DNA from: Dehalococcoidales bacterium
GTDB taxonomy: Bacteria > Chloroflexota > Dehalococcoidia > Dehalococcoidales > BS750m-G39
Length of the DNA stretch: 64,000 bases
Direction of reading: 5' to 3'
Assembly: GCA_034419075.1 (NCBI GenBank)
Contig: DAOULR010000022.1
Coordinates: 2,598 to 66,597, forward strand
The notes beneath the pieces were generated by a model, which made no database searches, had not been told where the DNA came from, and worked only from the letters and a program-made list of their open reading frames with translations. Below, piece after piece: positions 13,296 to 54,522 of the stretch. The first letter of the stretch is position 1, and every line of letters begins with the position of its first letter. The position numbers and the translations under genes are program-made.

Positions 13296-14852
13296 TTGGT
13301 GAAGCGGATAGCGGGAATCATTCTTATCCTTACTCTACTTTTATTACTAGGGGTGAGCTGTGATGGGAGTGAGTCTGAGCTCCCTTCTATTCCCGACACC
13401 ACGACCCCTGATACCACGGCTCCCGACACTACGGCACCCTCAATCACAAATGTCTCGGCAGAGAGTATTACCGAATTTACTGCCACCATCAGCTGGACAA
13501 CTGATGAGCCGGCCACCAGCCAGGTGGAGTACGGCACAACCACTGCTTATGGCCTGACTACTCCTTTAGACAGTGAATTGGTTACAAGCCATAGTATTAG
13601 CCTAACAGGGCTTGACCCGGGCAGCACTCATCACTTCATTGCGAAATCAGAAGACCTCGCTGGGAACGAAGCGATCTCAGACGACTATACCTTTATTACC
13701 ATTACAGGCGTGCTTGACCAGCTTGTGGTTCATTTCATTGATGTGGGCCAGGGCGATGCTATTCTAATCGACTACGGCACCAATGAAATGTTGATTGACG
13801 GCGGGAGATGGGGAGACTGTGCCGCCTATGTGCCGAGCTACATTGACGGCGCCCTGGAAGTGATGGTGGCCACTCACCCGGATGCGGACCATATAGGAGG
13901 TCTTGATGATATACTAGATATTTTCGACGTAGAGAATATATGGCTTAACGGAGACACAGCTTCCACTCAGACCTACACTGACTTCATGGCCAAAGTAAAT
14001 GCTGAGGGTGCACAGGTGCATCAGGCACAAAGAGGAGAGCAGATTAGCCTCGGCGACTTGACATTTGACGTTCTGTATCCCACGCTACCCTTGGGCTCCG
14101 ACAAAAATGAGAACTCTATAGTGCTGGAACTGGCCTTTGGCCAGATCGATTTCTTATTCACCGGCGATGTTGAAAGCGGTGGAGAAGCTAGTATGCTGGC
14201 AGCCGGTCTAATTGACGACATCGACATCCTGAAGGTGAGTCACCACGGCTCTAAGTACTGCTCAACCGCGAATTTTCTTGCCGCTGCACAGCCTGAAATA
14301 GCCATCTATTCTGCCGGAGCGAATAATACCTATGGGCATCCGGCTCCTGAGACGATCACGCGCTTATGCGATATTGGGGCAATCATCTATGGGACTGATG
14401 TCCATGGAACCATTGTGGTGACGACCAATGGAACAACTTACGATGTATATCCATCGAACGACGTGCCCCCGGTAGATTGCTCAATTTCGAGCGATATTAC
14501 TCATGACCCCACCATCAATGTTGGTAATAATGTGCAGATCACCAACATCTTCTATGACGGCCTCGTTTACCGCACAGAGTCCGATGAATATGTAGAGATC
14601 ACAAACCTCGGAAGCGAACCTCAGGACTTGGCTGGTTGGGTTTTAAAAGATATATCTGATGATGGTCCCTCATTTACCTTTCCCTCTTATGTCTTAGACC
14701 CGGGTGAAAAGACACGGGTTTACACGAATGAAATTCATGAAGGCTGCTTTAGTTTTGAGTATGGTCAAGCGATTTGGCAAAATGATCCCCCTCATGATGT
14801 CGCCGCACTATTTAATGAACATGGCATAGAAGTATCCAGAATGAGCTACTAG
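13296..14852 (+). CDS. Secreted FN3 / ComEC-type metallo-beta-lactamase / lamin-tail-domain protein (possible extracellular nuclease)
   Basis: 518 aa. Signal peptide, PDTT(T/A) repeat linker, FN3-like segment. MBL motifs DVGQGDAILI, HPDADHIGG, SHHGS. C-terminal LTD-like VEITNLGSEPQDLAGWVLKD. Confidence 0.7.
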   Translation: MVKRIAGIILILTLLLLLGVSCDGSESELPSIPDTTTPDTTAPDTTAPSITNVSAESITEFTATISWTTDEPATSQVEYGTTTAYGLTTPLDSELVTSHSISLTGLDPGSTHHFIAKSEDLAGNEAISDDYTFITITGVLDQLVVHFIDVGQGDAILIDYGTNEMLIDGGRWGDCAAYVPSYIDGALEVMVATHPDADHIGGLDDILDIFDVENIWLNGDTASTQTYTDFMAKVNAEGAQVHQAQRGEQISLGDLTFDVLYPTLPLGSDKNENSIVLELAFGQIDFLFTGDVESGGEASMLAAGLIDDIDILKVSHHGSKYCSTANFLAAAQPEIAIYSAGANNTYGHPAPETITRLCDIGAIIYGTDVHGTIVVTTNGTTYDVYPSNDVPPVDCSISSDITHDPTINVGNNVQITNIFYDGLVYRTESDEYVEITNLGSEPQDLAGWVLKDISDDGPSFTFPSYVLDPGEKTRVYTNEIHEGCFSFEYGQAIWQNDPPHDVAALFNEHGIEVSRMSY

Positions 14853-15054
14853 AAAACTCAATGCGGACTTTGCCTACCCGTTGACACCTCTCAGACTGCT
14901 GCCCTATTATTATCGAGAAGGCGCTGCCTTTTACAGCGGATTTTGCCTTGCCATTTGGCGAATTGTCCACTAAAGGTGGCGCCTTCGATTTCGGAAACAA
15001 AACCTGCAAAAAATGAGACTTGAAAAACCCGTGGAGGAATAATCCGTTGAGTTT

Positions 15055-15324: not shown

Positions 15325-15942
15325 CTATAAAACACTCACTGCGAATAGGACAAACATAATACCGAGTGATATTACGGCATAGAAAATACTGCGATAGGCG
15401 GAATACACATAATTATTACGAATAATATTTAGATACACATTTAATTCGGTATATAATGCTATCTTTTCGATCTTATCTTTTTCTGGTAATCGCATTTGTT
15501 TTGGAAACAACTGGTATACTTTATTTTTACTCCCCAATACTTCAAAAGACATGTAGCCCGCCATGATGAAGTAGCACAACGAGATAACACCAAAAGCAAT
15601 AACCCATGATTGTAACGGACTCACACTTAACTCTTCACTTACAAGTAAAGAACCTCCTAACCCGGTCATTAAAGAAACAGCAATTGTTAACCCGACTACA
15701 CTTATTCGTGCCTTACTTTCCAACGCTTTCATTTGTTCGACGGATTTATCATAGAATTCCTGGACTTCCCCAATTGTCAAGACATCCGATCCAGCCATAT
15801 ACCCAAATTTCATCTTTTGGTCTCCCAACAATTGCATCTTTTTCTCTACGAGATCATTCGCATGTCTGCAATTGAGAATTGGAAATAGGAAACAAGAAGT
15901 CATGAACACCATATTCCATGCCGATTTGATAAAGCTAGGCAT
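15325..15942 (-). CDS. Membrane protein (205 aa, 3-4 TM), hypothetical; translationally coupled to the ATP-grasp gene
   Basis: ATG overlaps the ATP-grasp stop by 8 nt. Hydrophobic helices at approximately residues 90-115, 120-150 and 180-205. Confidence 0.6.
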   Translation of the reverse strand: MPSFIKSAWNMVFMTSCFLFPILNCRHANDLVEKKMQLLGDQKMKFGYMAGSDVLTIGEVQEFYDKSVEQMKALESKARISVVGLTIAVSLMTGLGGSLLVSEELSVSPLQSWVIAFGVISLCYFIMAGYMSFEVLGSKNKVYQLFPKQMRLPEKDKIEKIALYTELNVYLNIIRNNYVYSAYRSIFYAVISLGIMFVLFAVSVL

Positions 15943-16915
15943 TTCCTAGCTCCAATAGATTACATAGTGTTTCGTGTAAAGGAATTCCGGCCGCATGGAC
16001 TAGCCAACCCCATTCTCCAGTAGGATTTATCTCAAGAAAATATATTTTATCGTCTGATTCTATCAAGTCGACAGCTCCGAAGGTTAATCCTAACGAATGT
16101 ACTAGGTTCACACATGCCTGAGATACTTCTTCAGGCAACGTGCATTCAATGAATTGGACCCCTTCTTTAATTCTTCTCCAGTCCCCTTCAACACCACTAC
16201 CATTTAATAGTATCTTTACAGGGAATATTGAATCTCCTATAACAGTAACCCTAATATCGGTCTTTGGGCGAAGATAATCCTGAATGATAACTGGCGCTAT
16301 CGACAATTCTGCAAGTTCCAGTTCGCTTCCTTTGACCACATTTGAATATACAAAGGCTTCCTTATCTTCAATCCTCAATACAGCTGTATCTATCGACTTG
16401 ATGATGTAAACTGAATCACTCTTGATATTCTCAGGGCATCTATTCGCTACAAGGGTCCTCGGTAATTGAAAACCAGCATTTTTGGCGTATTTTAGTTGTA
16501 GCAGCTTGTTTTCTGCTTTGAATGTAGCTATTGGATTATTGATCCATAGCGGATTTTCAAAGATTGCCAGGTTTCGGATAAAGGCAGCCCATTGTGTACG
16601 ATACAATTGTGTTTCTTCGGAAATATCAGGTTGATAAATGTCCCTCAGGTATATTGGAGCACGAAAATATATAGCTTTCAGATTCGGTTCTGAAAGGAAG
16701 AATCTCATATTGCTTTGTTCAATAAGTAGAGTTACGGAATCTATATCAAATGTCATCGAACATTCCGCAAACTTATCTCTATTAATCCTGAGGTAGTTTT
16801 GTTTTCGCTCACTGAGTTCAACGGTTATGTAGTCTGTGGTGTAATCTAGTGTGTCAGAAATAATTAATATCTCGGGCTCATTCACCTTTTCGATCTTCCC
16901 CTGTCTCAACATCAC
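15935..16915 (-). CDS. ATP-grasp peptide ligase, MdnC/MvdD (graspetide maturase)-like
   Basis: 326 aa. N-terminal ILIISDTLDYTTDY, KLLQLKYAKNAGFQLPRTL, DWRR, and C-terminal GLTFGAVDLI..IYFLEINPTGEWGWL closely follow my recollection of the microviridin ligase pattern. True start may be 16912 or GTG 16885. Confidence 0.8.
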   Translation of the reverse strand: MMLRQGKIEKVNEPEILIISDTLDYTTDYITVELSERKQNYLRINRDKFAECSMTFDIDSVTLLIEQSNMRFFLSEPNLKAIYFRAPIYLRDIYQPDISEETQLYRTQWAAFIRNLAIFENPLWINNPIATFKAENKLLQLKYAKNAGFQLPRTLVANRCPENIKSDSVYIIKSIDTAVLRIEDKEAFVYSNVVKGSELELAELSIAPVIIQDYLRPKTDIRVTVIGDSIFPVKILLNGSGVEGDWRRIKEGVQFIECTLPEEVSQACVNLVHSLGLTFGAVDLIESDDKIYFLEINPTGEWGWLVHAAGIPLHETLCNLLELGNA

Positions 16916-17233: not shown

Positions 17234-18028
17234 CTACTCGAGTTCACTTTGACTTCGTATTTTCTTCATAATTGACCGTCGCCCCAAGTAAAAATTGGTA
17301 GCACTGCTGTCAGCATTCCGAGCTTTCTCAAGCACTTCTTGAATTTTTTGTTGGTCGGCTCCTTCCTTTTCCAGTCTATACGCCTCATGTAAGTAGGGCA
17401 GAGCCGGGCTCAATTCATCTGGAAAGGGAGTTTTAATTGAATCTTCGAATACTCTCTGCCAATCATGACGGGCGTAAGATCTGGTAACTTCACCGCCTTG
17501 TCGGTAATTAACTACGTCTCTGGAGGATTGTAGTCGCCTCCCTGCAGGTGAGCTAGGCCTATCTGAAGGTACTTCAACTGATTGTTCCAGAGTTGTGTTT
17601 TCTAGTTCCCCTTTTCCTTCAATTACCCAACCACTCGGAACATAATCGGGCGGTATTTGGTATGCCTCGTCAGAGATGCGAACCCACAACACCCTCGATA
17701 TTTTAAATGTTCTCTGCGCACTTCGATAGTGACAATAGGCATCAAAATATTCGCTCCCGAGACCGTAAATGTTGATATCCCTCACTTTTATCGCTGGTTC
17801 CCCAGGCATTGGGTTGCCAGTTTCATACTCCATCGTTACACGAAGCTTTCTTGTGTATCCTAATCGGAGTAACTCAATTGTTTTGCTCTTTGTAACCTGA
17901 GCTTTGCCGGAGAATTCGGCAGTAGTCAGGTGACGAGATGCGTTTTGAGAAGGTCTTCTTCTTTGACTAAGCCAAATCACTAGAGTTACGAGGGCAACTA
18001 ATAGAATGACAATCCAACCCATTTCCAA
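17234..18028 (-). CDS. Membrane-anchored WYL-like domain protein
   Basis: N-terminal TM helix (GWIVILLVALVTLVIWL). Core ..VRDINIYGLGSEYFDAYCHYRSAQRTFKISRVLWVRI.. resembles the WYL domain (aromatic-x-L...RxFrxxRI). Likely ATG start at 18022. Confidence 0.6.
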   Translation of the reverse strand: MEMGWIVILLVALVTLVIWLSQRRRPSQNASRHLTTAEFSGKAQVTKSKTIELLRLGYTRKLRVTMEYETGNPMPGEPAIKVRDINIYGLGSEYFDAYCHYRSAQRTFKISRVLWVRISDEAYQIPPDYVPSGWVIEGKGELENTTLEQSVEVPSDRPSSPAGRRLQSSRDVVNYRQGGEVTRSYARHDWQRVFEDSIKTPFPDELSPALPYLHEAYRLEKEGADQQKIQEVLEKARNADSSATNFYLGRRSIMKKIRSQSELE

Positions 18029-18042
18029 TTATCTCCATTGCC

Positions 18043-21000
18043 TCAAAGAGGGCGAGTGTACCGACATTGGTTCTCTGTGTCCTTGTATCCAGAGCACCCT
18101 AAAAATACTCCTCTTCGGCCCCACCTAATTTCCATCTCTCTTCCGCATTTCGGACAAATCGTAGCATCTGGAATTAGAGCTTGTTTAAGGTCTTCTCGCT
18201 TCACATTTGCAGTTGAATTACACCTTTCACACTTGTAGAATGGCCCAAATCTCCCTCGTGGTATAACCTTCATTTTATGGCCACAATTGCTGCACAATCT
18301 TGAGGGAACCTTGCTCGGATTGATAGCTGGGGATAAACTGTCACCAGCCTCCCCCGGCATTTGCAGCCCACACTCATCCATGACCTGTTTGGTGAAATCT
18401 TCATTCTCCAGACGAAACATAAGTTCCTGCGTGTTCTTGTGCGAGAGCGCGTTTAGGCTGCCGAACCAGACCAGTCGGCCATCTACGACTATCACCTTCT
18501 GGTGCATTGAGGATCGCTGAATTACTTTGGCTCCAATCTGTTCAAGGTAGTTGAGCATTTTCTGGATTTCGCCATGGTCTGCGGTCCCTTGTTGATGAGG
18601 CGGGCGTGTTACTAATTCCACATTGATGCCTTTCTCCACCTTTGCTCTGAGTAAATCAACATATGTGCTGAGGCGATTCTTTGTGATAAATGGGCTCATA
18701 ATAATGATATATCGCCCGGAATTTTCCAAATCGTATCGGAGCCCAGAATGAAAATCATCCTCTGTCCAAAACGAACTAACCGCGCTGCTCTTTTCTTTTA
18801 AAGGCCAGAGTGTTTCCCGTGCTTGCCGTACCGCTTGGTCAGCGTAACCTGGCACCAGTTGGTCAGCCGCAAATGTTGGAAGTGGGGTAGATTCATCGAA
18901 TAGCACCTTGCTTAGTGACCACTCCCTATTTAATCGGGATTGTAGAAATGACAGGTTAGCAATGATAGCCAGCTTCTTTTTAGCTCGGCTGCAAGCAACA
19001 TTGATTAGACGTGCACCTGCTGAATCATCGACGTCTTCGGAATCTATCTTACCTTTAAGGAGCTTACCTATACGAAGACCTGTGCTATCTACGAGGTCGC
19101 ATATTATTAGTTCACGTTCACTACCTTGGAAACGGTGGACATTTGAGACCGTTACTTTATCTTTCAGTAATGAATCAATTTCTACCAAGGCCTTTATTAG
19201 ACGTGTCTGGGCTTTGTAAGGCGTTATTATTCCGATATCGGTGAAATTTCGAATCGCACTTTGGCATAGTTTTACTGCCAGAACAGCGTGGTAAAGATTA
19301 AATCTCGAATAACTACTGGTCCAGCTGCACCACGGGTCTATTGCAGATGTATCATACACACCAACACATGTGCCAGGACAGGGTTGGTATGATCTTACTC
19401 TAGGTTCCCCAGAAATGCCGTCTCGTAACTTGTCATTATAGAAAACGCTACTCACTATGGCTCTTATCTCTGGCTGCATCCTATATTGAGTTCTTAGCAT
19501 TACCATCGGGGAGTTCCCCATCTGCTCAAGTTCCGATTCTTTATCTATGCCTGCAGCCACATATATATCTCTACGCAACCACTCTTTAACTCTGCTATCA
19601 TCGCTCAAGGCTATAGGTGCCAATTGGCGGAAGTCGCCAGCAATGGTGATAGACCTCGTGGCCAAACTACACACCCAGTAGAGTGCCGGTATCCCGGCCA
19701 TACTGGCCTCGTCACAAACAATGGTGTCAAATTGCCTACCATATACCTCGTTCATGGTGCATGTTCTGGCAAGCGTAGTTGCTATTAACACCGCCTCATC
19801 TATTATCTGCTGCCTCATTTCTTCGATTTGCCACTCCAACTCAGTTATTTGGGTACGCAAATCTTCAATTTTTGCCCGTATGCCGGCAATCTCGCCTTCG
19901 AGAGTATCAGGTAATAAGGATTCCTGCTTTAGCTTACCCTCAATTTCGTTTACTTCAACGCGAAGTCTATTCAGTTTGCTTGTTGATTCCTTGAGATTTC
20001 CCTCCACTTTAGATTTTTGTTCAATCAACTCATTACGTTTTACCGCTAGATTGGAAATAGAGTATTCTATTCTGCTAATCGACATTCCTCTAAGGAACCT
20101 CGCGATACCTGACATCGCCTTTGTTTTCTGAAGACGGTTTTCTTCCTGCTCAAACTTCCCCGTTACACCAGATATCTTATCTCGTAAAGCCTCTATGGAA
20201 CTTTCCAACTCAGTATGAGAAGCCTCTTCTTGAGCAATTAGCTTTTTCGATGCTTCCCATTTCTCCAGTTGGCTTCTGAGTGCCTGTAATGTCGTAAGTC
20301 TGGTCTCCGTGTCGGTCAATTGCGCACGTAACTCAGAAAGTTGCTCTCTTAAAGGCCCACTCTTTCGCTCCGTGATTTTATCAAGATTGAGATTATCATC
20401 ATCTCCAATTTCTGAGATTTGAGGCGTGCCGAGCCTTAGGATACGCCCTTCTCGATAATGTTCGGTTTCCTGCAGCGGCTTCAAACAAGCTATCAGTGCC
20501 TGATCGATGGCAACGTTGGTATTAGCAGTGAGCAAAACACTCCGTCCGCACTGTATCATGCTTGCTACAGCAACTCCTACAGTGGTAGTCTTTCCAGTGC
20601 CTGGAGGACCCCATATATAACAAATCTCGCTCCCCAGGGCTTGTCGAATGGCTTTTTGCTGGTCTTCATTTAGTTTACCCCATTGCTCTTGTAGGTTTTG
20701 CCCTGGAATGAAAGACTCATTGATTTGGTATTGGAATTGTTTGCGTCTCAAGCATTTTTCGGCGATTATACAAGAAGCATCCTGTAAGGTATCAAGGCGT
20801 TCCGACAAACGTTCGAGAAGGTAATATGGCTGTGCTAGTATACGAGCTGACGGGACATACTCTCCCAGATCACTTTCTATCGCAACTAATATCTGGTTTC
20901 CTGAAACTCCAACAATATGGCCAGATGCGTCTGAGCTCGCTGTACGTACTAATACCGGAGTTTCATCAAAGGCGCCTGATAGAGTTGGGTCATCTAAGAT

Positions 21001-21135
21001 GAAGCTATATACGTATAGCGGTCCCCTTACCTCGACAAGCCTCCCGGCACGTACATCCCACCTAGCGGCGCCCTTTTTCTTCTGTTCCTCTATTTCAACT
21101 GCAAGGGCGTTTTTAAATTCGTTGATTATGCTCAA
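18043..21135 (-). CDS. SF1 (Upf1/DNA2-like) helicase with coiled-coil insert, C-terminal PLD-family nuclease domain and two topoisomerase-type Zn ribbons
   Basis: 1030 aa. Walker A GPPGTGKTT, DEASM, ~200-aa heptad-rich insert, HQKVIVVD...GSLN (HxK-x4-D PLD motif), CxxC...CxxC ribbons at the C-terminus. Confidence 0.85.
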   Translation of the reverse strand: MSIINEFKNALAVEIEEQKKKGAARWDVRAGRLVEVRGPLYVYSFILDDPTLSGAFDETPVLVRTASSDASGHIVGVSGNQILVAIESDLGEYVPSARILAQPYYLLERLSERLDTLQDASCIIAEKCLRRKQFQYQINESFIPGQNLQEQWGKLNEDQQKAIRQALGSEICYIWGPPGTGKTTTVGVAVASMIQCGRSVLLTANTNVAIDQALIACLKPLQETEHYREGRILRLGTPQISEIGDDDNLNLDKITERKSGPLREQLSELRAQLTDTETRLTTLQALRSQLEKWEASKKLIAQEEASHTELESSIEALRDKISGVTGKFEQEENRLQKTKAMSGIARFLRGMSISRIEYSISNLAVKRNELIEQKSKVEGNLKESTSKLNRLRVEVNEIEGKLKQESLLPDTLEGEIAGIRAKIEDLRTQITELEWQIEEMRQQIIDEAVLIATTLARTCTMNEVYGRQFDTIVCDEASMAGIPALYWVCSLATRSITIAGDFRQLAPIALSDDSRVKEWLRRDIYVAAGIDKESELEQMGNSPMVMLRTQYRMQPEIRAIVSSVFYNDKLRDGISGEPRVRSYQPCPGTCVGVYDTSAIDPWCSWTSSYSRFNLYHAVLAVKLCQSAIRNFTDIGIITPYKAQTRLIKALVEIDSLLKDKVTVSNVHRFQGSERELIICDLVDSTGLRIGKLLKGKIDSEDVDDSAGARLINVACSRAKKKLAIIANLSFLQSRLNREWSLSKVLFDESTPLPTFAADQLVPGYADQAVRQARETLWPLKEKSSAVSSFWTEDDFHSGLRYDLENSGRYIIIMSPFITKNRLSTYVDLLRAKVEKGINVELVTRPPHQQGTADHGEIQKMLNYLEQIGAKVIQRSSMHQKVIVVDGRLVWFGSLNALSHKNTQELMFRLENEDFTKQVMDECGLQMPGEAGDSLSPAINPSKVPSRLCSNCGHKMKVIPRGRFGPFYKCERCNSTANVKREDLKQALIPDATICPKCGREMEIRWGRRGVFLGCSGYKDTENQCRYTRPL

Positions 21136-21141
21136 TGCTGA

Positions 21142-24100
21142 TTACTCCACCGGCCACCCCGGTATCAATTCGTCAATCTCCGTCATCAACCGGATGGTCT
21201 CCTTAAGCGCTACAATGACCTTCTGATAGTGTGCAGAGTCATCGTAGGTCAATATCCTGCCCTTGCGGTCTTTGAGCCATTTCTGAGCAACTTGGTAGCC
21301 GCCGACGTGGAAATCCCAAACTTCTGCCGGCACACCTTCGAAGTACTGTGACTTGTTGATATTGACACGCCGGTTGTTGTCATCGTAGCTTACCTTTTCA
21401 ACCTCGTCGGAGCCGGTGACAGGATAGCGCGTGATGGGCTCACCCAGCGCAGGCGATTCCATGAGGTGCAGGGCTACCAGCTCGGCGCCCTTTGCCGCCA
21501 GCGCCTTGAACAGTTTTTTATCCGAGGTGAGCGGCAAGCGCGGGAAGTCTATCTTTAGAAACTCTGCATACCGGCTGCGGTAGGTAGGCGAGTGGAAGAC
21601 GGCGTAGGCGTAGTTGAAGATATCTTCCGGGCCAAAGGTTTCCTTAAGGTCTCCCCGGCCATCTTCAACAAATTTCAACCCCAGCTTCTCTTGAACAGCC
21701 TTGATGAACTCCGGGTTTAGATTGGGACGGCGTTTACCGCCTTCAAACTGCATCTCGCCTTTGGTGGAGTAAAGGTATAGTGGAAAGAGATAATCTTGCC
21801 CCTTGTTACCGAGATAAAAGGTACCGTGACAATTAGGATGTTCAGAGACCCCGAAATACGAATATTCTCCGCCAACTGTCTGTCGCATGGTGATTAATCC
21901 AAGGTTTTCTCTATTAATAAAATGGGACATTATTTCTGAGCGTGGTCGCCCGAGAAATCCGCTGCTTTTGCCTGTAAAATACGTCCAGCGGAAATCGAAG
22001 GGTCGGTACAAAATAGGGACGACACTCTCTTGCTTAATACCAAAATTCTGGAGATCCCTTTTTGCACTATTGATAGTCCAACCTGAAGTGTCGGGACCGA
22101 GATCAAAGTGCTCACGCGCATCTTCACTATCAAGGTCTGAAAATTTCTTTACCACCTTCAGCATTGTGTCGGCATCATCTTGTATTGCTAACTTATCTTT
22201 TTTCGTTTGAATACCAGAACTATATTGGATGAATACCTTGTTGATTACCGGATAGTAATTATATTCATCGTGAGTTGTGTCATCCATAGGGCAGAAGTAG
22301 AAATATGGCGAATTAACGTTAAGAGCTTCCCATTCGGTGGATTGAATAGAATTTGACTCAAGATACTCATATTTTTCTTCTTTGGGCCCAAACAATTCAT
22401 AATATTTAACACTACAGTCTTTTTCGGATGCTCCGACACTATCGGTTTTCACCATCAATATTATTGTGACTCCCTGTTGGATTGCGAAAACATTTTCATC
22501 AGTGACGTCAGCGGGTACTGATCTAGATGCCATAGTACTTCCATGTAAATTAAGTATATAAATCGAATTAAACGTGTTATACAATGAATATCGCATAACC
22601 CTGCTTGCTATCCCGTCAAGGAAGGAATTATTAATAATAAATCCTATAATACCCTTCCCAGTTTTTTCTATACGCCAATCTGCAAATCTGAGGAATTTCC
22701 ATTCTTCTCTATTGAGGTCGAACTTCTTTTCAGTCAAACCTTCTTTATATTTTTCCAAGAGATCCATAATCCACGCGCCTTCAAAAATGGAGCTTGAATA
22801 CGGCGGGTTGCCCAGTACCACCATTATCGGCTCATCTTTCTTAATCCGGGCGGCGGCGTTGGATTCCTCGGTTATCCACTGGGCAAACAGAGTTTCGGAG
22901 TGCTTGATTGCCTCCTCTAGCGTGTTGGTAAGATAAATACCCAGGCGCTGGTCGCTCTGGAACTCGTAGCCCGTCTCCTGCAGCAAGAGCCCGAGCTTGA
23001 GGTGAGCCACGGCGTAAGGTGCCATAAGCAGCTCGAAGCCGAAGATGCGGGGCAGTAGCTTCTTGGCCACATAGTTATTCCACATCCCTTCCTGACCCGT
23101 GAAAGACTGACGAATCTCGTTAACTACCATGTACAGGAAGGTGGCCGTACCCACCGCCGGGTCAAGGATGAGCGCCTTATCATCAGCCAGCCCTTGCGGT
23201 TTGTTGAAGCGGGTCTTCAGTAGGTGGTCGATTGAGCGGACAATGTAGCTGACTACCGGCTCCGGCGTGTAGTAAACGCCGCGCATCTCCCGTACCTTGG
23301 AGTCATAAGCAGTCAGGAAGGTCTCGTAGAAATGCACCACCGGGTCTTCCTTGCCGCTGTGCTTGCCGAAGTCTTTAAGAACCGCCTCCATATTCGCCTG
23401 GTCTAATACCTGTGCTAGGTCGTCGACCAGCCAGGCGATGCGGTCATCAAGGTCAGGTCCGGCGATGTTATTGAAAAGCTTGCGCAGGAACGGGTTTGTC
23501 TTCGGCAGGAGATAGGCGGCATTCTGGCGGGTAAAGTTCTTTTCCTCCGGGTGCGTGCACCGGGCGGCAAACAGGCCGTAGACGATGGTCTGAGCATACA
23601 TGTCGGCAAACTGCCCTGCAGAGAGGTCGGGAATTAGGTTATCGCGAAATGCCGCTAGCTGCACATGGAGATTACCACTTTTCGGCTCTTTCTCAAAGGC
23701 GTTGACGATAAGCTCTCTAATCATGTGTGCCAGGCGAGCCATTCGTAGCGCCAGTTCTTTCGGTGTGCCAACAGCCTCGGCTTTGTGAGCGAGAAAATTA
23801 CCAAGCAGCTCGACAACTGACTGAGCTCCATTGCTGTCGCGCTTGACTTTGCCATCTTTAGTTAGCGTGCCCAAACGTGCCGAAAATCGACGTTTGCCGT
23901 CTACATACCAGCGGAATTCGAGGTAATCAGTCAAGATGAGGTTGGTGAGCGGAGCAAGGTAACGCTTGAATCTTTCCCCGTCCGGCCCTTTCCCGCGCTC
24001 AATATCGTCCAGGCTCTTACCAACATCCTTGGCCTCTATATAGCCAACTTTAAGAGCACCCTTGGTAACCAGAAAGTCAGGGGCACCACATGCAATTCGT

Positions 24101-24267
24101 CGAGGCTCGTTGGTGGCGGTGATTCCCTCAGCCAGACTCTCCACCAGAGCTTCCAGCGCAGAGCGGTGGGTATGCTCGGTAGAATCGCCGGTGGCGAGTT
24201 TCCTCTCAATGGAATGTATGTAGTTTTGCACTAGCTTCACGTTATTTGTTATTTCTTCTCGGTTCAT
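21142..24267 (-). CDS. Type IIG-like restriction-modification enzyme (PD-ExK nuclease + gamma-class N6-adenine methyltransferase + C-terminal specificity region)
   Basis: 1041 aa. N-terminal GAPDF..x12..GYIEAKD (PD...ExK), motif I LDPAVGTATFL, motif IV GNPPY. The C-terminal VWDFHVGGYQVAQKWLKDRKGR block is known from type ISP/YeeA-like enzymes. Confidence 0.8.
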   Translation of the reverse strand: MNREEITNNVKLVQNYIHSIERKLATGDSTEHTHRSALEALVESLAEGITATNEPRRIACGAPDFLVTKGALKVGYIEAKDVGKSLDDIERGKGPDGERFKRYLAPLTNLILTDYLEFRWYVDGKRRFSARLGTLTKDGKVKRDSNGAQSVVELLGNFLAHKAEAVGTPKELALRMARLAHMIRELIVNAFEKEPKSGNLHVQLAAFRDNLIPDLSAGQFADMYAQTIVYGLFAARCTHPEEKNFTRQNAAYLLPKTNPFLRKLFNNIAGPDLDDRIAWLVDDLAQVLDQANMEAVLKDFGKHSGKEDPVVHFYETFLTAYDSKVREMRGVYYTPEPVVSYIVRSIDHLLKTRFNKPQGLADDKALILDPAVGTATFLYMVVNEIRQSFTGQEGMWNNYVAKKLLPRIFGFELLMAPYAVAHLKLGLLLQETGYEFQSDQRLGIYLTNTLEEAIKHSETLFAQWITEESNAAARIKKDEPIMVVLGNPPYSSSIFEGAWIMDLLEKYKEGLTEKKFDLNREEWKFLRFADWRIEKTGKGIIGFIINNSFLDGIASRVMRYSLYNTFNSIYILNLHGSTMASRSVPADVTDENVFAIQQGVTIILMVKTDSVGASEKDCSVKYYELFGPKEEKYEYLESNSIQSTEWEALNVNSPYFYFCPMDDTTHDEYNYYPVINKVFIQYSSGIQTKKDKLAIQDDADTMLKVVKKFSDLDSEDAREHFDLGPDTSGWTINSAKRDLQNFGIKQESVVPILYRPFDFRWTYFTGKSSGFLGRPRSEIMSHFINRENLGLITMRQTVGGEYSYFGVSEHPNCHGTFYLGNKGQDYLFPLYLYSTKGEMQFEGGKRRPNLNPEFIKAVQEKLGLKFVEDGRGDLKETFGPEDIFNYAYAVFHSPTYRSRYAEFLKIDFPRLPLTSDKKLFKALAAKGAELVALHLMESPALGEPITRYPVTGSDEVEKVSYDDNNRRVNINKSQYFEGVPAEVWDFHVGGYQVAQKWLKDRKGRILTYDDSAHYQKVIVALKETIRLMTEIDELIPGWPVE

Positions 24268-24272
24268 ATAGA

Positions 24273-24713
24273 CTACTCACTAATACCTAAAATAGCGGCC
24301 GCTTTTTCTATGAACCTCTCCGCTGAAGCAATAACCGCCTTCGCTCCAGATTGAGAAAAATTAGCTTCGTAATCGGCCGCTTCACGAAGATTCATGGCAT
24401 TTAGGAAGTCACGAACTGACTGGGCTTCCATTGTGCCCTCGTCTACAAATAGCGCTCCCAAAGCTACCGCCAGACAGTAATGGCTCTTCTCGCGGTATCC
24501 CTGAGAATAAACAAGTGCTCTGGCGGCATGGAACATGGCATAGTAGGCTTGTATAGTCGACCACTTATAGCGTCCATTTTCATAGCCTGCTTTTGCATCC
24601 GACAGGTCACTTCTGGCTACTGACAACTCCTTCTTAACCAGGTTTTTACCCCTGGCGAAGGAAACTATCTTCTTATTCTCAAGACACTGCTTAAACTCTC
24701 GATTCACTGGCAA
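24273..24713 (-). CDS. HEPN domain protein (toxin-like partner of MNT)
   Basis: 146 aa helical protein. Overlaps the upstream nucleotidyltransferase gene by 23 nt, the classic MNT-HEPN arrangement. Confidence 0.7.
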   Translation of the reverse strand: MPVNREFKQCLENKKIVSFARGKNLVKKELSVARSDLSDAKAGYENGRYKWSTIQAYYAMFHAARALVYSQGYREKSHYCLAVALGALFVDEGTMEAQSVRDFLNAMNLREAADYEANFSQSGAKAVIASAERFIEKAAAILGISE

Positions 24714-25257
24714 CTCTTTCCCATAGCACGATGCCGCGTTCGACTTCTTCCATGAAAGCCCGTTCTGATTCCTCCCCCTCTAACAGCTCGACAGGCGTCT
24801 TAATTACTGATTGAATATGAATATCCTCGTATCCCCTCGGGAATTTGAACTTACTAATAGTATTTGACACGCTTTCCCTGTGGTTCGATACCACGAATAA
24901 ATCGAGATCACTCTCAGAGGTATCTGTCCCTAAGGCACAGCTGCCGTATAACACTATGCGGTTTGATATCTTCTTTAGCTCTTCTACCAATGGTTCAATA
25001 AGCATGAGGTTTATCATTTTCTTTAACTCGATGACAGCAGAAGCCGAGGAATCAATCGAATAGAAAAACATCTTGCCTTCCCGGCGGCGGGTGACAGCAC
25101 CGGTCGAATAAAGCTCATTCAGCGTCCGGTTTGCTGATCCTGAAGATATTCCAAGCTTACGAACCAATTCTCGTTCATAGAATTCTTGGTCTGAGAATTT
25201 CGCCAGCAGGCCCAGCACTTTCTGGTTGCTTGTAGCGATTAGATGTGGTTTCAACAT
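24691..25257 (-). CDS. Minimal nucleotidyltransferase (MNT) with N-terminal winged-helix domain
   Basis: 188 aa. LYGSCALGTDTSESDLDLFVV matches GSxxxGxxxxxSDxDL. Confidence 0.8.
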   Translation of the reverse strand: MLKPHLIATSNQKVLGLLAKFSDQEFYERELVRKLGISSGSANRTLNELYSTGAVTRRREGKMFFYSIDSSASAVIELKKMINLMLIEPLVEELKKISNRIVLYGSCALGTDTSESDLDLFVVSNHRESVSNTISKFKFPRGYEDIHIQSVIKTPVELLEGEESERAFMEEVERGIVLWERVASESRV

Positions 25258-25543
25258 GTGCCATTTGCTCCAAATATTGAGTATATGCTCATTGTAGTGA
25301 GCAATAGAAGGAAAGTCAAGACCCTGTATAGGATTATGGCAATGGCTTACTTATTGCACAAAACTGACTTTTGTTCAATCTCGCCGCGTTCAATAGAAAA
25401 TCATAAAATGGTATATCAAGAACGCACTAAATTATCGAACCTTTAACCTAGGGGAAATGAATCATAAAAGCTATAGTAGAGCCTACCCCCCGAGAGGTTT
25501 TACACTATCTGGAATCGCGTCGAGTTACTCTTGGAAGTGCCGT

Positions 25544-25600
25544 AATTCTTGATACTTTCTTGACCATCCCAACCAATTTCTTGACACCTCTTTGACTTCC
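25544..25600 (-). promoter_or_regulatory. Operator copy 1 (four TCAAGRA half-sites, spacing 11/21/11) upstream of usp
   Basis: Reverse complement GGAAGTCAAAGAGGTGTCAAGAAATTGGTTGGGATGGTCAAGAAAGTATCAAGAATT aligns with copies 2 and 3. Sits 130 nt from ATG 25730. Confidence 0.7.
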
Positions 25601-31917: not shown

Positions 31918-33126
31918 CTATTTGGCTTTAACTGGCTGTTTGGCTCGTCTAGGCTTTGCTTTAGGCTTCTCGGCTACTGGCTCGGTAGCCTCTGGCTGAC
32001 TCTCGGCTGGCTCGGTGGCAACCTCGGCTTTGGCTTGTTCGGCTTTAGCCTTTACCTCTGCCTGCGCCTCTGGCGTCAGCATCGGCATTACCACCAGTTG
32101 ATAGCCGTCAACGGTAAAGAGCAGTGGCGATACGCCGTTGGTGAGCTTAAGCTCCACCATACCCCCACAAGCCTTGAGGGCGTCGGCAAGATACTTGCCG
32201 TCCACCCTTATTCTGACCGTCTCACCGAGGGTGTCGGCTGCTAGCTCGGCTTGACCCTTATCATCGGGGTTAGCCATCACCAGCCTGCCTTCGCCAGCGG
32301 TGAGGTCAATCGGGTAGGCTTTGCTGTCGGATATGGCTTTGAGCGAGCTAACCGCCTTGATTGCCTCTACCGTGTCAAAGTGAACGAAGGTGCTAAACTC
32401 GGTAGGTATCAGCTTCTCATAGTCGGGGAAGTTACCCTCAAGGCTAGCCCACTTGTAGCGGATTAGCTCGGTGTCTATGGTGAGCGTCTTGATGTCCTCA
32501 CCGTCAAAGCTAACCCTCGCCCGCTTGGCTCTCCGCAGGGCATTGGCTATGCCCTGAAGCTCGTCACGGCTTATCAGAGCTTGCCCCTCTCCATCCTCGT
32601 AGTCAAGGCTTGTTACCGCCAGCCTGAAGCCGTCGGCACTGACCAGAGTCAATTTACCGTCTTTAGCCACCAAGCTGACACAAGCTAAAACAGGTCTATC
32701 GTCATCGGTGGCGGTAAACGGCAATACCCTTGACAGCGCCTCTGATAGCTCTAGGCTGCCGATGTTGGGCTTGACCGAGTTGTTGGGGCTGACCCTGACC
32801 TCGCAGAGGCTCATCGGCGTCTTATCGCCAATCCATTCGCTATCGGCAAGTTGGCTGGTATTAGCTCCGCAGATTACCTTAAGCCTCTTGTGTCCGTTAG
32901 CCTGCGACCCGCTAGCACTACCGTTAGACGGTATCACCTTGACGATGTTACTACCGCCCAAAGCCTTAAGGTATCCGAGTAAGCCTTTGCGCCCTATGGT
33001 CAAGTCCATAAGCATTACCCTTTCGGCTAACGCTCTGGACAGAGCGCCTACCAGCACAGCCTTGTGAGCGACAAAGCCGTCGCCTGAACGCTTGCCCACG
33101 ATATTAAGTTGTTCTATTTTAATCAC
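31918..33126 (-). CDS. DNA polymerase III beta (DnaN)-like sliding clamp with Ala/Glu/Lys-rich C-terminal tail
   Basis: 402 aa. TDDDRPVLACVSLVAKDGKLTLVSADGFRLAV, GNFPDYEKLIP and YQLVVMPM match clamp domain II/III landmarks. The last ~50 aa are low-complexity. Confidence 0.7.
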   Translation of the reverse strand: MIKIEQLNIVGKRSGDGFVAHKAVLVGALSRALAERVMLMDLTIGRKGLLGYLKALGGSNIVKVIPSNGSASGSQANGHKRLKVICGANTSQLADSEWIGDKTPMSLCEVRVSPNNSVKPNIGSLELSEALSRVLPFTATDDDRPVLACVSLVAKDGKLTLVSADGFRLAVTSLDYEDGEGQALISRDELQGIANALRRAKRARVSFDGEDIKTLTIDTELIRYKWASLEGNFPDYEKLIPTEFSTFVHFDTVEAIKAVSSLKAISDSKAYPIDLTAGEGRLVMANPDDKGQAELAADTLGETVRIRVDGKYLADALKACGGMVELKLTNGVSPLLFTVDGYQLVVMPMLTPEAQAEVKAKAEQAKAEVATEPAESQPEATEPVAEKPKAKPRRAKQPVKAK

Positions 33127-47730: not shown

Positions 47731-48128
47731 CCCGTTGCTCCTTCTCTTTCCCGCTTCTCAACGCCGGTGACCGTGGCCCCGGCCAGCTTCTTGGCCTCGT
47801 GAATCAGCTTCAAGGTGCTGTCGTCAACCTCGAGGAGATACTCCAGCTCCTGCTCGAGATACGTGGGATAGCCGGCGGGAAAGCCGCCGACGAGCTCGTC
47901 TCTCAGGACGACTACCACCTCGTCGCCCAGGGCGCGGCAACGCCAGAGGCACCAGCCCCTTGTTGCCAGCAGCTCGCTTGTGCTAGCCTTCTCCTGCGCC
48001 CGGCGCAGCTCCTCCTCAAGCCCGGCCAGCTCCTCTTCCCACGAGTCAGTAGCCATCCCCTTCGCCCTGGCCAGGGCTATGGCCCTCCTGCCCCTCTCTA
48101 TGCGCGAGTTAATGTCCCGACTCTTCAC
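47727..48128 (-). CDS. Hypothetical protein (~133 aa)
   Basis: GTG 48128 chosen. The longer track ORF (to 48419) overlaps the primase-helicase gene in another frame. Confidence 0.4.
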   Translation of the reverse strand: MKSRDINSRIERGRRAIALARAKGMATDSWEEELAGLEEELRRAQEKASTSELLATRGWCLWRCRALGDEVVVVLRDELVGGFPAGYPTYLEQELEYLLEVDDSTLKLIHEAKKLAGATVTGVEKREREGATG

Positions 48129-50325
48129 TTGCCACCTCGTCGAGAAAGTCGTCCCAGGGGTCTTTTGCTTCCCTATCCCCGGGAAGTCCGTCATTACCGT
48201 CACAACCGCCACCGCCAGATATGGAGCCAGCTTGTGACGGTTTTTCCGGGCTCTCCAAACCGTCACCCTCTTCCCTGTCTGGCAGTGACAGTAATGACGG
48301 TTGTGACGGTTTCTCCTGGGATAGAGGGGTTTGCGCCAGCCCGTAAAGAGAGGCCAGCTGCCTGACCCGGTTCTCGTCCCAGCGGATAAACCTCGACTTC
48401 GAGGTCCGCTCCTTTCCAAAACCCAGCTTCTTGGTCATCCAGCCCACCTTCTCCGAGGTCAGCGCCGGGGCGTCGTTATCCATCTCATTGACCTTGTCGG
48501 TTATATTCCTTATGGTGAGCTCGGCGCCCTCGCCGTGCAGCTCGATAATGGCCGCCAGCACCCTGCCCAAGGCGCTCTCGCGGCGCCTTGAGAAAAGCGT
48601 CTCCTGGAGCCGGTGGATGAAGGCGCTGAGGCTCTCGGCCATGGCCCGGTCGCCGTTGACCATCGCCTTGAGCGGAATCAGGATCTCCTGCAGCCTGGGC
48701 TGGAGGTTCGGCTCGAGAAGGTCGTTGCCGAAGGTCCTGCCCTTGAGCTTGAGCAGGTTGGCCAGCCTGAAGGTGAGCAGCTTCGAGCGCAGCTGTTTGA
48801 CCTCGGTGTCAAACGACGGCGGCAGCACCCTGGGGATGTCCGGCCTGGTCAAGGGCATCATCTCGGCGGTGAGGCACCGGCTCTCCAGGGCTTCGTCCTT
48901 GAAGGTGGAGCGCGTGGCGATGAGCTTGGGGCCGAAGACCTGGTAGCCGTGGGGGTACCACTTGCCGTCCTCCTTGTCCGACCTTAGCACGGGGAAGTTG
49001 GGGCGGTAGCCGTTGTTCAGTATCTTGACCATCTCTACCCAGGCCGAGGAGTCCTTGAAGTCGGCCTCGTCGAGGACCAGCGTCCCCTGGAACTTGTCCA
49101 GGATGCGGAAGATGGGAGACGGGGTAGTTGCCCCCGAGGCGAAGATGGGTCGAAAGCAAACTCTTCCCACGACGTCCAGAAACCTGGTCTTGCCGGAGCC
49201 CCAGTCGCCGATGACCCTCAGGTAGGGAATGGAGGGGGCAAACTCGTAGACCCAGGTCAGCAGCACGTACAGGGCGGCGATGTCCTCGAAATCGGCAGGG
49301 AGCTCAATATACTGGTGGATGAAAGCCTTGGCCTCACCGAACAGGGTGGCCTGGGAGTCGTAGGGCGCGGCGGTGGCGGCGAAATGCACCACCTGGCCCA
49401 CCAGGGGGTCGCCTGTTGGTATATAGGTAACCCTGCCGGTCTGGTACTGAAGCACCTTCCTCACCGACCCGCCCACCAGCACGATGAATGACCGTTCCCC
49501 GGCGTCGCTCACTATCATCTCGCCCACAGTTCCGTCAGGAAGAATAAAGCCCGATACGCTCCGCTCAATGGTCCGGCTCTCCTCGCCGTCAAGCTCCCCC
49601 GCCAGCTGCCGGGCGTCCTCCAAGGAATGCTCCAGGAGGTAATCGTCGATGCCCACCTTCCGGTCGCCCGGCTGGGGAAGACGAATCGCCAGGACGTTCG
49701 CCTCTCTGCGCCGGAGGTGCTCTGCAATGCGTCCGAGAGCTTTCCTGACCGGCTCCTTGGTGACGACATCCGAGTCGAAGGAAAGGTAAACGACGCGCTC
49801 CTTGAGGGCGATGTAGTCCCAGTCGGCAAGCAGGGTAACGCCGCCGAGCTCGTTTTTACCCTTGAACCCCCAGACGCCGGTGAGAGAAACGGAGCAGGCC
49901 CCGTGCGACGCCAGAGAGTCTGCCTTCTTGCTGCCCTCGGTCACCCACAGCGGAACTCTCGGGTCGCTGAGCATCTTCCGGCAGCGTGGAGGGCAGTCAA
50001 GCCTGTTGGCCGAACCCCTGGGAGACTCGTATTTCACCGGCCTGCCCCTGGCGTCAACCCGGGGATTATCGGGCCGGTATTGATAGCCAGCCTCCTTGCC
50101 GTCAACTCCCCAGAGAGGAATGAGGATGCCCGGGGTGCGCTGCTGCGCCGGGGTAAAGCCCAGCTCCTTGATCTCAGCTTTGCCCAGGAGACTCCGGTAA
50201 CCCCGCTCCCTGATCGCGTCGGCGCTTACGCCGCTTCCCTCCTGAAGGTGCCTCATGTGGCTTTCCAGGAGCTCAGGGATATCCTTTGAGAAAACATGGC
50301 CGGCTTCCTTTGACTCGGTGCTCAT
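48109..50325 (-). CDS. Primase-helicase-like replication protein (Toprim/DUF3854-like N-terminus + P-loop NTPase)
   Basis: 738 aa. PLWVTEGSKKADSL acidic Toprim-like segment, Walker A GDWGSGKT, Walker B LVLDEAD. Confidence 0.7.
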   Translation of the reverse strand: MSTESKEAGHVFSKDIPELLESHMRHLQEGSGVSADAIRERGYRSLLGKAEIKELGFTPAQQRTPGILIPLWGVDGKEAGYQYRPDNPRVDARGRPVKYESPRGSANRLDCPPRCRKMLSDPRVPLWVTEGSKKADSLASHGACSVSLTGVWGFKGKNELGGVTLLADWDYIALKERVVYLSFDSDVVTKEPVRKALGRIAEHLRRREANVLAIRLPQPGDRKVGIDDYLLEHSLEDARQLAGELDGEESRTIERSVSGFILPDGTVGEMIVSDAGERSFIVLVGGSVRKVLQYQTGRVTYIPTGDPLVGQVVHFAATAAPYDSQATLFGEAKAFIHQYIELPADFEDIAALYVLLTWVYEFAPSIPYLRVIGDWGSGKTRFLDVVGRVCFRPIFASGATTPSPIFRILDKFQGTLVLDEADFKDSSAWVEMVKILNNGYRPNFPVLRSDKEDGKWYPHGYQVFGPKLIATRSTFKDEALESRCLTAEMMPLTRPDIPRVLPPSFDTEVKQLRSKLLTFRLANLLKLKGRTFGNDLLEPNLQPRLQEILIPLKAMVNGDRAMAESLSAFIHRLQETLFSRRRESALGRVLAAIIELHGEGAELTIRNITDKVNEMDNDAPALTSEKVGWMTKKLGFGKERTSKSRFIRWDENRVRQLASLYGLAQTPLSQEKPSQPSLLSLPDREEGDGLESPEKPSQAGSISGGGGCDGNDGLPGDREAKDPWDDFLDEVASEESGH

Positions 50326-50357: not shown

Positions 50358-51338
50358 CTACGTGCTCGAGGAGTAGCGCTCCACAGCCCTCAGAAAATGA
50401 GCCAGCTGCTCGGCAGTCAGGTTGGCCGGCGGCGATACCGACTCAAAGTCCTTGAGCCTGACGCTGATGCGATAGTTTCTCTCGAACCAGTCGGATATCT
50501 GCCAGTCCTGAACGTTGAGATGCCAGACCCTGGTCTTCGCCGTGTCCCACAGTCGGGCCAGCTCCTCGTCCTGGGGCGAAGACTGGCCTGTTTCGCCCTC
50601 CGCCAGTGTCTCCTCGGGGAAAAGGTCGTCCGGCGCCTCGCTGTCGGGCGGCGGCAGGATTAAGGCTTTCGCCGGCGGTATCTGGGCGTACCTCTGTATT
50701 TCAGACAGGGAATAGGGACAGGTCAGGCTGAGGACGTAAACCTTTTTCCTTCTGCCGTCGGGCTGAACTTCCTTCTCGACCAGCTTCAGCGAAAGCGGTA
50801 TCATTGATACCCGCTGGCAAATGCTCTTTATCAGCGCCAGCTCCGAGTTAACGCTCAACATCGAGTGGTAAGAGGTCGTGTCGAGCTGGTAAACGCCAAA
50901 GCCCGGGCAGTCGGGTATGAGAAACTGCAGGTTCATCACCCTCCGGCACTGCCCCCGCCGGTGGTAAGCGCAGCTATCCGGGCTGCAAACGATCTCTCTT
51001 AACTCGGTCGCCGCCGCATCCATGGCGGCTATCTCGCCCGTCTTGACGTCGACCCTGGCCACCGCCGTCTCGCCGTCGCCGCGGCAAATCAGGACCCGCG
51101 TTGCCGAGTAGCACCGGAGATACTGGCTGGCCCATTGCTCGCTGTCCTCGGTAGGAAACATGATCCGCAGCTCTTTCGGCTTTTCCCCGAAGACCTTCCT
51201 GACCTCCTGGGGGCAGACAAAATAGTCGGTCGGCGTGGGGTAGCTCACCCCGCCGTCGGCGCTTTTCTTCACTCCCAACCTTATCCTGCCCAGCCGAGGC
51301 AGCCTGACAATTTCAGATATTCCCTTTATCGGCGACAT
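50358..51338 (-). CDS. Hypothetical early protein (326 aa)
   Basis: ATG 51338 preceded by AAGGAGG. No family recognised. Confidence 0.5.
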   Translation of the reverse strand: MSPIKGISEIVRLPRLGRIRLGVKKSADGGVSYPTPTDYFVCPQEVRKVFGEKPKELRIMFPTEDSEQWASQYLRCYSATRVLICRGDGETAVARVDVKTGEIAAMDAAATELREIVCSPDSCAYHRRGQCRRVMNLQFLIPDCPGFGVYQLDTTSYHSMLSVNSELALIKSICQRVSMIPLSLKLVEKEVQPDGRRKKVYVLSLTCPYSLSEIQRYAQIPPAKALILPPPDSEAPDDLFPEETLAEGETGQSSPQDEELARLWDTAKTRVWHLNVQDWQISDWFERNYRISVRLKDFESVSPPANLTAEQLAHFLRAVERYSSST

Positions 51339-51542
51339 GCGAACCTCCTTCTGTATCCACCATGCACGGGCTTTTATGGTCGCCCAGCAACCCTTCCCTA
51401 CGACCGATGGTGACCGCCAGATCAAGGAGAGTGCGGAGCCTCTGCTCCACTACCCTCGGCTTACGCTCCGATGACGTATGAATCTCAACCTGATCCGCCT
51501 GACTTATCACCATGACCATAAAGATCCCCTATCGTATTCCTG

Positions 51543-54446: not shown

Positions 54447-54522
54447 TGGTGGGCGGTACAGGACTTGAACCTGTCACCTCTTGCGTGTGAAGCAAGCGCT
54501 CTAACCACTGAGCTAACCGCCC
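54447..54522 (-). tRNA. tRNA-Val (anticodon CAC), CCA encoded
   Basis: Hand-folded cloverleaf. Acceptor GGGCGGT/ACCGCCC, D arm GCTC-AGTGGTTA-GAGC, anticodon arm CTTGC-TTCACAC-GCAAG, variable AGGTG, T arm ACAGG-TTCAAGT-CCTGT, then A-CCA. 76 nt. Confidence 0.9.

Follow-up and report, generated by a model that had tools for sequence, protein, structure and literature searches.

A helicase–PLD nuclease related to Mokosh, with a coiled-coil arm, zinc ribbons and a linked WYL protein, in a Dehalococcoidales genome

What kind of system is encoded by a 1030-residue protein that joins a superfamily 1 (SF1) helicase to a PLD nuclease in a Dehalococcoidales bacterium? The gene lies in a stretch of 64,000 nucleotides (assembly GCA_034419075.1, contig DAOULR010000022.1, positions 2,598 to 66,597), here called the window and numbered from its first letter. 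An earlier, sequence-only reading of positions 18,043 to 21,135 had assigned the protein to type II Mokosh. Judged from its sequence, the protein is homologous to Mokosh and has the fusion order of the type II protein MkoC, yet it lies outside the MkoC family as profiled. It is followed by a small gene for a WYL protein, and we consider it probable that the pair forms a two-gene defence-island module in which a Mokosh-related defence nuclease-helicase is assisted by a WYL accessory.

The sequence-only reading was right about the open reading frame (ORF), and the SF1 helicase motifs, the PLD motif and the two C4 clusters that it reported are present in the translation; it had omitted the minus strand, the gene for the WYL partner and the neighbouring restriction-modification and HEPN/MNT genes. 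The ORF occupies 18043..21135 on the minus strand, and translation of the same coordinates on the plus strand is riddled with stops. It starts with TTG, with a GGAG 9 nt 5' of the start, and ends with TGA. An identical 1030-aa product is held in a public protein collection. The gene, its segments and the partner gene are as follows:

18043..21135, minus strand: whole gene, helicase / coiled coil / PLD / zinc-ribbon protein of 1030 aa (translation, Pfam, AlphaFold2 model)
20686..21135, minus strand: residues 1–150, N-terminal helix, beta-barrel (24–101) and short helices (model, alignment)
20401..20685, minus strand: residues 151–245, first part of RecA1 with Walker A GPPGTGKT at 176–183 (Pfam, model, alignment)
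19789..20400, minus strand: residues 246–449, antiparallel coiled-coil hairpin between Walker A and Walker B, apex 341–356 (model, alignment)
18931..19788, minus strand: residues 450–735, remainder of RecA1 (DEAS 475–478, Q504) and RecA2 (QYRM 550–553, R717) (Pfam, PDB matches, alignment)
18373..18777, minus strand: residues 787–921, PLD nuclease domain with a single HKD (H878, K880, D885, GSLN 892–895) (Pfam, PADLOC, alignment)
18046..18300, minus strand: residues 946–1030, two C4 zinc ribbons, the second of topoisomerase I type (Pfam, PDB match, model)
17234..18022, minus strand: WYL partner gene, 262 aa, ATG at 18022 and its own GGAG, starting 20 nt past the helicase stop

In the helicase-PLD translation, Walker A (GPPGTGKTT) spans residues 176–184 and Walker B (DEASM) residues 475–479, and Pfam matched AAA_11 (3e-30), AAA_12 (5e-31) and PLDc_2 (2.9e-11). 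The PLD motif consists of HQKVIVVD at 878–885 followed by GSLN at 892–895, which gives the full HxKx4Dx6GSxN pattern (H878-Q-K880-VIVV-D885-GRLVWF-GSLN), and the chain carries one HKD motif only. The C4 clusters are C948/951/969/972 and C994/997/1014/1024. Both had previously been read as topoisomerase I-type ribbons. This holds for the second, in which residues 993–1029 matched Zn_ribbon_Top1 in Pfam (1.2e-8, 35 bits against a cutoff of 32) and E. coli TopA among PDB sequences (7.8e-6), but not for the first, which is a generic C4 ribbon and gave no significant match to the topoisomerase I ribbon family. Residues 1–150 had no match in the Pfam and PADLOC scans; in the alignment of relatives this N-terminal domain is kept family-wide, with G31, Y43, F45 and L110 invariant.

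An AlphaFold2 model of the protein was built from a 40-sequence alignment, with a mean predicted local distance difference test score (pLDDT) of 87 and a predicted template modelling score (pTM) of 0.70. From the N-terminus it shows a helix and beta-barrel (24–101), a RecA1 domain split by a hairpin, RecA2, the PLD domain (787–921) and two small three-stranded ribbons. The best Foldseek matches in the PDB were senataxin, Dna2, Upf1, Ighmbp2 and Sen1 (E 1e-31 to 1e-24, and 1e-31 to 1e-27 for the first four), hence the motor is a Upf1-like SF1B helicase. Walker A, DExx, the motif III glutamine, the motif VI arginine and the RecA1/RecA2 fold expected of this class are all found, and a sequence search of the PDB also matched Upf1 (1.7e-19). 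Mokosh-labelled entries were absent from the PDB matches of both the sequence and the Foldseek search.

The heptad-rich insert of about 200 residues, for which modelling by AlphaFold had been suggested, emerges as an antiparallel helical hairpin covering residues 246–449, with helix 260–340 packed against helices 353–404 and 409–447. Based on the 81-residue helix of the model, the arm is about 120 Å long. Profile searches matched the insert stretch to the coiled-coil families of SMC, Rad50, LmuB and JetC. In SMC and Rad50, too, the arms interrupt the stretch from Walker A to Walker B, and the arm described here is topologically reminiscent of them. Among 36 measured members, 32 had a distance of 297–310 aa from Walker A to Walker B; four others had no exact DEAS match. 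At the apex of the coiled coil, R346 is conserved in 39 of 40 relatives (97%), and across the 40 relatives the mean conservation was 0.48 at the tip against 0.30 in the arms. The nearly fixed spacing and the conserved tip indicate that the coiled coil is a constrained element of the whole family.

That family is extensive. At a threshold of E≤1e-10 more than 1800 homologous proteins were found, and domain content was judged on the best 120 matches. All 120 contained AAA_11/AAA_12 together with PLDc_2, about 95 contained Zn_ribbon_Top1, and 116 were 934–1159 aa long (the remaining four were shorter and probably partial). Source names among the matches included Bathyarchaeota, Armatimonadota, Nitrospirae, Desulfosoma, Chloroflexota, Gracilibacteria and Bacteroidales, and the match annotated as Bathyarchaeota (archaea) was 62% identical to the helicase-PLD protein. 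When the PLD and ribbon module was searched against 1.84 billion representatives, 774 clusters (50% identity) were found at E≤1e-10, and in most of the full-length matches listed (about 1000–1250 aa) the module formed the C-terminus. The protein thus belongs to a large unnamed family of bacteria and archaea, mostly from uncultured lineages; a literature search on the NCBIfam name 'PLuB system' found nothing. K182, D475, E476, Q504, R717, K880 and D885 are invariant in 40 relatives of 28–86% identity, and H878 is present in 39 of the 40. By this alignment, the catalytic residues of the ATPase and of the HKD site are intact and conserved family-wide.

Among the anti-phage systems found recently, Mokosh is one of the commoner. 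According to PMC10952713, which cites Millman et al. 2022, MkoC of type II corresponds to the E. coli YjhR family, and Cury et al. (bioRxiv 10.1101/2022.12.12.520048) describe E. coli yjhR as a Mokosh fusion. All yjhR loci of E. coli that we inspected were truncated pseudogenes, and a homologue search seeded with a YjhR fragment gave, among the matches listed, only partial proteins of at most 588 aa. Genuine full-length MkoC was found by tblastn against plasmids, in Arsenophonus (1162 aa) and Vibrio (1172 aa); these proteins scored 1387 and 1414 bits over positions 1–1135 of the MkoC profile (PADLOC PDLC03924). Their layout comprises an N-terminal domain, Walker A at 292, Walker B at about 691–695, AAA_12 and a PLD domain with its HKD at about 1105, and they end about 35–45 aa past GSxN without a zinc ribbon. 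No mechanistic study of Mokosh was found in the literature searched.

On the Mokosh profiles, the helicase-PLD protein behaves as a relative rather than a member of type II. The MkoA, MkoC and MkoB profiles all match: MkoA at 1.2e-55 (187 bits, helicase only), MkoC at 1.4e-42 (144 bits) and, for the PLD domain, MkoB at 1.9e-11, next to DrmC at 7.7e-11. The zinc ribbons had no PADLOC match. The domain order, which had been left unverified, is helicase then PLD, as in Arsenophonus and Vibrio MkoC and in the YjhR fragment. Alignment to MkoC by hhalign gave a probability of 99.8% and 21% identity over about 390 columns, from just before Walker B to the PLD domain, and identity to YjhR was 24%. The type II assignment therefore stands with respect to domain order and profile matches, but it fails on the score, 144 bits against 1387–1414 for genuine MkoC. 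The segments fall on the 1136 positions of the MkoC profile as follows:

Walker A patch: MkoC profile about 249–291
Coiled-coil insert (15-bit match): MkoC profile 398–575
RecA2 with motifs V/VI: MkoC profile 859–967
PLD domain: MkoC profile 986–1115

On the MkoC profile, coverage reaches about 22% for the best single stretch and about 26% for all stretches together; on MkoA the best stretch reaches about 44%. For the best stretches, these values are below or near the usual DefenseFinder and PADLOC cut-offs. Four other members of the family showed the same partial behaviour on the MkoC profile. MkoA was the best-scoring PADLOC model for the helicase core (profile positions 609–1093 of 1112), with 118 bits against 63 for MkoC in RecA2 and 53 against 22.5 bits in the Walker A segment, whereas the PLD segment was marginally closer to MkoC. 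The earlier guess that the protein might mark a distinct subtype proved right. The protein has its own N-terminal domain, zinc ribbons, which MkoC lacks, and a region between the Walker motifs that does not align with that of MkoC. The idea that the coiled coil is an addition to an MkoC scaffold had to be dropped, as MkoC has its own, non-aligning stretch of 399 aa between Walker A and Walker B in the same place.

These comparisons bear on the simplest alternative, namely that the gene is a plain type II Mokosh, a stand-alone MkoC gene to which the WYL gene and the zinc ribbons are incidental. The shared order, the MkoC profile and hhalign matches and the many family members that are stand-alone genes would all fit such a protein. 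We nevertheless consider it unlikely, given a score ten-fold below the roughly 1400 bits of genuine MkoC, the low profile coverage, an N-terminal domain and inter-Walker region that cannot be aligned, a helicase core closer to MkoA, and a partner that is conserved across three clades and in part fused in a fourth lineage.

The partner protein begins with a transmembrane (TM) helix (residues 2–21) and an RRR motif, followed by a WYL domain (about 41–135), a disordered linker and a C-terminal helical bundle (181–261). In its model a disordered linker follows RRR, then a helix and a five-stranded barrel (41–120), a second disordered linker and the bundle. The WYL sequence matches were a weak one in Pfam (0.0068) and a PADLOC WYL match at 9.7e-6. 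Foldseek matched the barrel to the WYL domains of PafBC, CapW, BrxR and DriD, with a root-mean-square deviation of 2.2–3.1 Å over 80–91 residues, and the matched DriD and CapW entries are complexes with single-stranded DNA (ssDNA). A helix-turn-helix (HTH) had no Pfam match in the partner, and the model shows the TM helix, linker and WYL domain instead. Based on the basic residues that follow the TM helix, the WYL domain is placed in the cytoplasm (N-out, C-in).

Homologues of the partner lie directly downstream of helicases that are 86%, 70% and 62% identical to that of the window. They also accompany a second clade of helicases, 30% identical to the window helicase (loci L016, L095 and L099), and a third at 31% identity (P0030, locus L104). 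These three partner-bearing clades are about 30% identical to each other, whereas the WYL domains of their partners are 50–55% identical. The gap between the two genes is about 20–30 nt in most loci. A further helicase, P0021 (36% identical, 1145 aa), carries at its C-terminus, as a fusion, the C-terminal 60-residue tail of the partner (E 8e-12). The partner family comprises 61 clusters, and a helicase-PLD gene lies immediately upstream in every context with enough flanking DNA. Hence, a membrane-anchored, HTH-less WYL partner is genetically linked to the helicase-PLD family. The partner family is modular and occurs as TM+WYL+tail, TM+WYL and TM+tail forms (L007, which is P0021; L099, which is P0181; L104; L003). 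P0181, P0165 and P0173 are TM+tail forms without a WYL domain, and the P0014 locus and L104 hold TM+WYL forms without the tail, L104 with two TM helices.

At one of these loci (L095/L096, 3998–6979 of a Dehalococcoidia-type contig) two ORFs of 620 and 319 aa stand in place of a single helicase-PLD gene, owing to either a frameshift or an assembly error, and the WYL partner next to them is intact. This locus adjoins a tyrosine integrase and lies opposite topA.

How might such a pair of proteins work? Single-HKD enzymes such as Nuc, BfiI and Zucchini need two chains to form an active site, and the WYL regulators PafBC, BrxR, CapW and DriD act as dimers. By mass photometry, Mokosh type II behaves as a monomer, and the only protection that it gave in one screen was against an ssDNA phage (bioRxiv 10.1101/2025.07.10.664194). 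Taken with the lone HKD, which would need two chains, the monomeric state suggests that activation probably amounts to induced pairing at the inner membrane. In the model that we tentatively propose, the zinc ribbons and helicase would load on single-stranded nucleic acid, and the helicase-PLD protein would translocate 5'->3'. The most likely substrate would be ssDNA, in view of the TopA-type ribbon, of WYL relatives that bind ssDNA and of the narrow protection conferred by Mokosh II. The single HKD half-site would be inactive in the monomer and become active once two chains meet, with pairing brought about by the tip of the coiled coil, by the WYL partner, or by both. The cytoplasmic WYL domain of the partner would sense a nucleic-acid ligand at the inner membrane, and the partner may thereby tether or activate the nuclease-helicase close to the site of entry or packaging of foreign DNA. 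This specific scheme of membrane sensor and induced dimerisation seems to us possible, though clearly less probable than the defence module as such. The same tentative standing applies to its broadest form, an undescribed immune module in which an HTH-less membrane WYL sensor of single-stranded nucleic acid recruits and pairs two helicase-PLD copies, the coiled-coil arm controlling assembly of the split HKD site; the family would then constitute a third Mokosh-like branch, related to the piRNA pathway, across bacteria and archaea.

Several points weigh against this interpretation. The defence role, the substrate and a contact between helicase and partner are things that we infer, as are dimerisation and recruitment to the membrane. 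The substrate could be RNA instead of DNA, since Upf1-like helicases act on both. The TM+WYL and TM+tail variants imply that the partner can lack either its tail or its WYL domain, and the enzyme can do without the partner altogether, since many members of the helicase-PLD family have none. With the full protein as query, no full-length relatives were found in the phage and plasmid collections. Finally, some relatives (L007, L097) sit among ordinary metabolic genes.

The surroundings of the gene and of its relatives are often rich in defence genes or recombinases. In the window it lies in a low-GC stretch (0.41–0.48 against 0.52–0.61), flanked by ORFs whose translations resemble the phosphate-transport protein PstB and PhoU and by two resembling a response regulator and a sensor kinase. 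Neighbours of relatives elsewhere include AbiEii, Mrr, DUF499/DUF1156/GIY-YIG, AAA_15+DUF4276 and ThiF/E2/multi-ubiquitin genes, as well as MTase+MutH, EVE/NucS, SLFN and recombinases. This context argues against a housekeeping helicase-nuclease, an analogue of Dna2 in DNA repair or RNA turnover without an immune role. Such an enzyme would account for the nearest solved folds (Dna2, senataxin and Upf1), for the metabolic neighbours of some relatives and for the kinship of the partner with PafBC and DriD, WYL proteins that belong to DNA-damage responses. It would sit less well with a gene in a low-GC island, with highly variable neighbourhoods that are often rich in defence genes or recombinases, with the 62% identity of the Bathyarchaeota-annotated match and with so small a partner family (61 clusters), and we regard it as improbable.

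Within the island, five co-oriented and tightly packed genes run from 25257 to 17234, in the order MNT, HEPN, Type IIG, helicase-PLD and WYL partner. The three upstream of the helicase-PLD gene are:

24273–25257, minus strand: overlapping genes for an MNT nucleotidyltransferase with an N-terminal MarR-like HTH and for a HEPN protein (PADLOC candidate PDC-M05A/B)
21142–24267, minus strand: restriction-modification enzyme of Type IIG, complete in a single chain of 1041 aa (PADLOC REase_MTase_IIG, 923 bits)

In the Type IIG enzyme an N-terminal nuclease motif (PD..EAK) is combined with an N6_Mtase domain and a C-terminal Type_ISP_C target-recognition domain (6e-93). Its stop lies 6 nt before the helicase start, between the ribosome-binding site and the start codon of the helicase gene. 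The sole promoter-like site upstream of the gene string was found at 25319–25291, and no terminator-like site was found on the minus strand from 25257 to 17234. A conserved linkage to the methyltransferase was considered and rejected, as phmmer found no homologue of the Type IIG methyltransferase in about 100 related loci, nor was one present in the curated contexts. It is very unlikely that the helicase-PLD protein is the motor or nuclease of a restriction-modification-like system with the upstream Type IIG/ISP methyltransferase (DISARM-like or split Type ISP-like), because the close same-strand spacing with the methyltransferase stop inside the helicase start region, the absence of a terminator-like site and the DrmC match of the PLD domain are outweighed by the missing methyltransferase homologues and by a Type IIG enzyme that scores 923 bits to complete enzymes and has its own PD-(D/E)xK motif, so that an extra nuclease is unneeded.

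Promoter, terminator and repeat scans of the island gave nothing above chance save a weak repeat of 17 nt. This imperfect direct repeat, TTGACACCTCTCAGACT at 14881–14897 and TTGACACCTCTTTGACT at 25581–25597, flanks the low-GC island and may be the scar of an insertion or have arisen by chance. Other genes of the region were recorded as well. An ATP-grasp enzyme resembling graspetide/microviridin maturases (15325–16915, minus strand; TIGR04187 at 2e-46, below the curated cutoff) shares 8 nt with the gene for a 205-aa multi-pass membrane protein without a family match. At the island edge, 13296–14852 on the plus strand encodes a protein that looks secreted or lipid-anchored and combines a ComEC-type metallo-beta-lactamase with a C-terminal lamin-tail domain. 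A probable integrated mobile element spans about 30500–54522. Its parts include a large serine recombinase (52880–54391) abutting tRNA-Val (54447–54522), a Gp3-like recombination directionality factor (50358–51425), a DUF3854 protein (48109–50325) and a divergent sliding clamp (31918–33126).

Taken together, the helicase-PLD family is a sister to Mokosh MkoC/MkoA, set apart by an N-terminal domain, a coiled-coil arm and zinc ribbons of its own and, in several clades, by a membrane WYL partner. It is large and apparently unnamed, and the standard Mokosh profiles cover it only in part; if its function is confirmed, defence-annotation tools will need a new model. The family offers three experimental handles, namely a coiled-coil arm with a near-invariant tip arginine in an SF1 helicase, a topoisomerase-type ssDNA-binding ribbon, and a linked membrane-anchored WYL protein that could reveal how such helicase-nucleases are triggered or positioned.

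Compared with known systems, the protein shares most with MkoC: one chain, a Upf1-like SF1 helicase followed by a C-terminal single-HKD PLD domain, colinear homology from just before Walker B to the PLD domain, and a large insertion at the same position between Walker A and Walker B. It differs from MkoC in that the N-terminal domain of about 260 aa is replaced by a 150-aa helix-plus-barrel domain, the 399-aa inter-Walker region has as its counterpart a clean coiled-coil hairpin with which it does not align (spacing about 300 aa), about 110 aa of zinc ribbons extend past the PLD domain, and a WYL partner gene is conserved in several clades. Mokosh type I shares the resemblance of the helicase core to MkoA and of the PLD domain to MkoB. 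However, MkoA and MkoB are separate genes whereas the two activities are fused here, the N-terminal part of MkoA (about 600 residues) is absent, and the MkoB match spans only about one quarter of the MkoB profile.

The WYL partner shares with BrxR, CapW, DriD and PafBC the beta-barrel fold and a gene position beside a defence-type effector. It differs in lacking HTH and WCX domains, and is thus not a transcription factor of their type, and in having an N-terminal TM anchor (one helix here; L104 has two) and a helical tail at the C-terminus, which is optional. Among solved helicases, Upf1, senataxin/Sen1, Ighmbp2 and Dna2 have the same helicase fold with accessory elements in or before RecA1. 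Their identity to the protein is just 15–18%, and in place of the small 1C or 'prong' domain of Upf1-like helicases there is a helical hairpin of about 80–90 residues per arm. Dna2 likewise combines helicase and nuclease in one chain, but its nuclease is an N-terminal PD-(D/E)xK domain and not a C-terminal PLD domain. Mokosh is tied by domain homology to the animal piRNA pair MOV10L1 and Zucchini/PLD6, in which, as here, a Upf1-like helicase is combined with an HKD nuclease.

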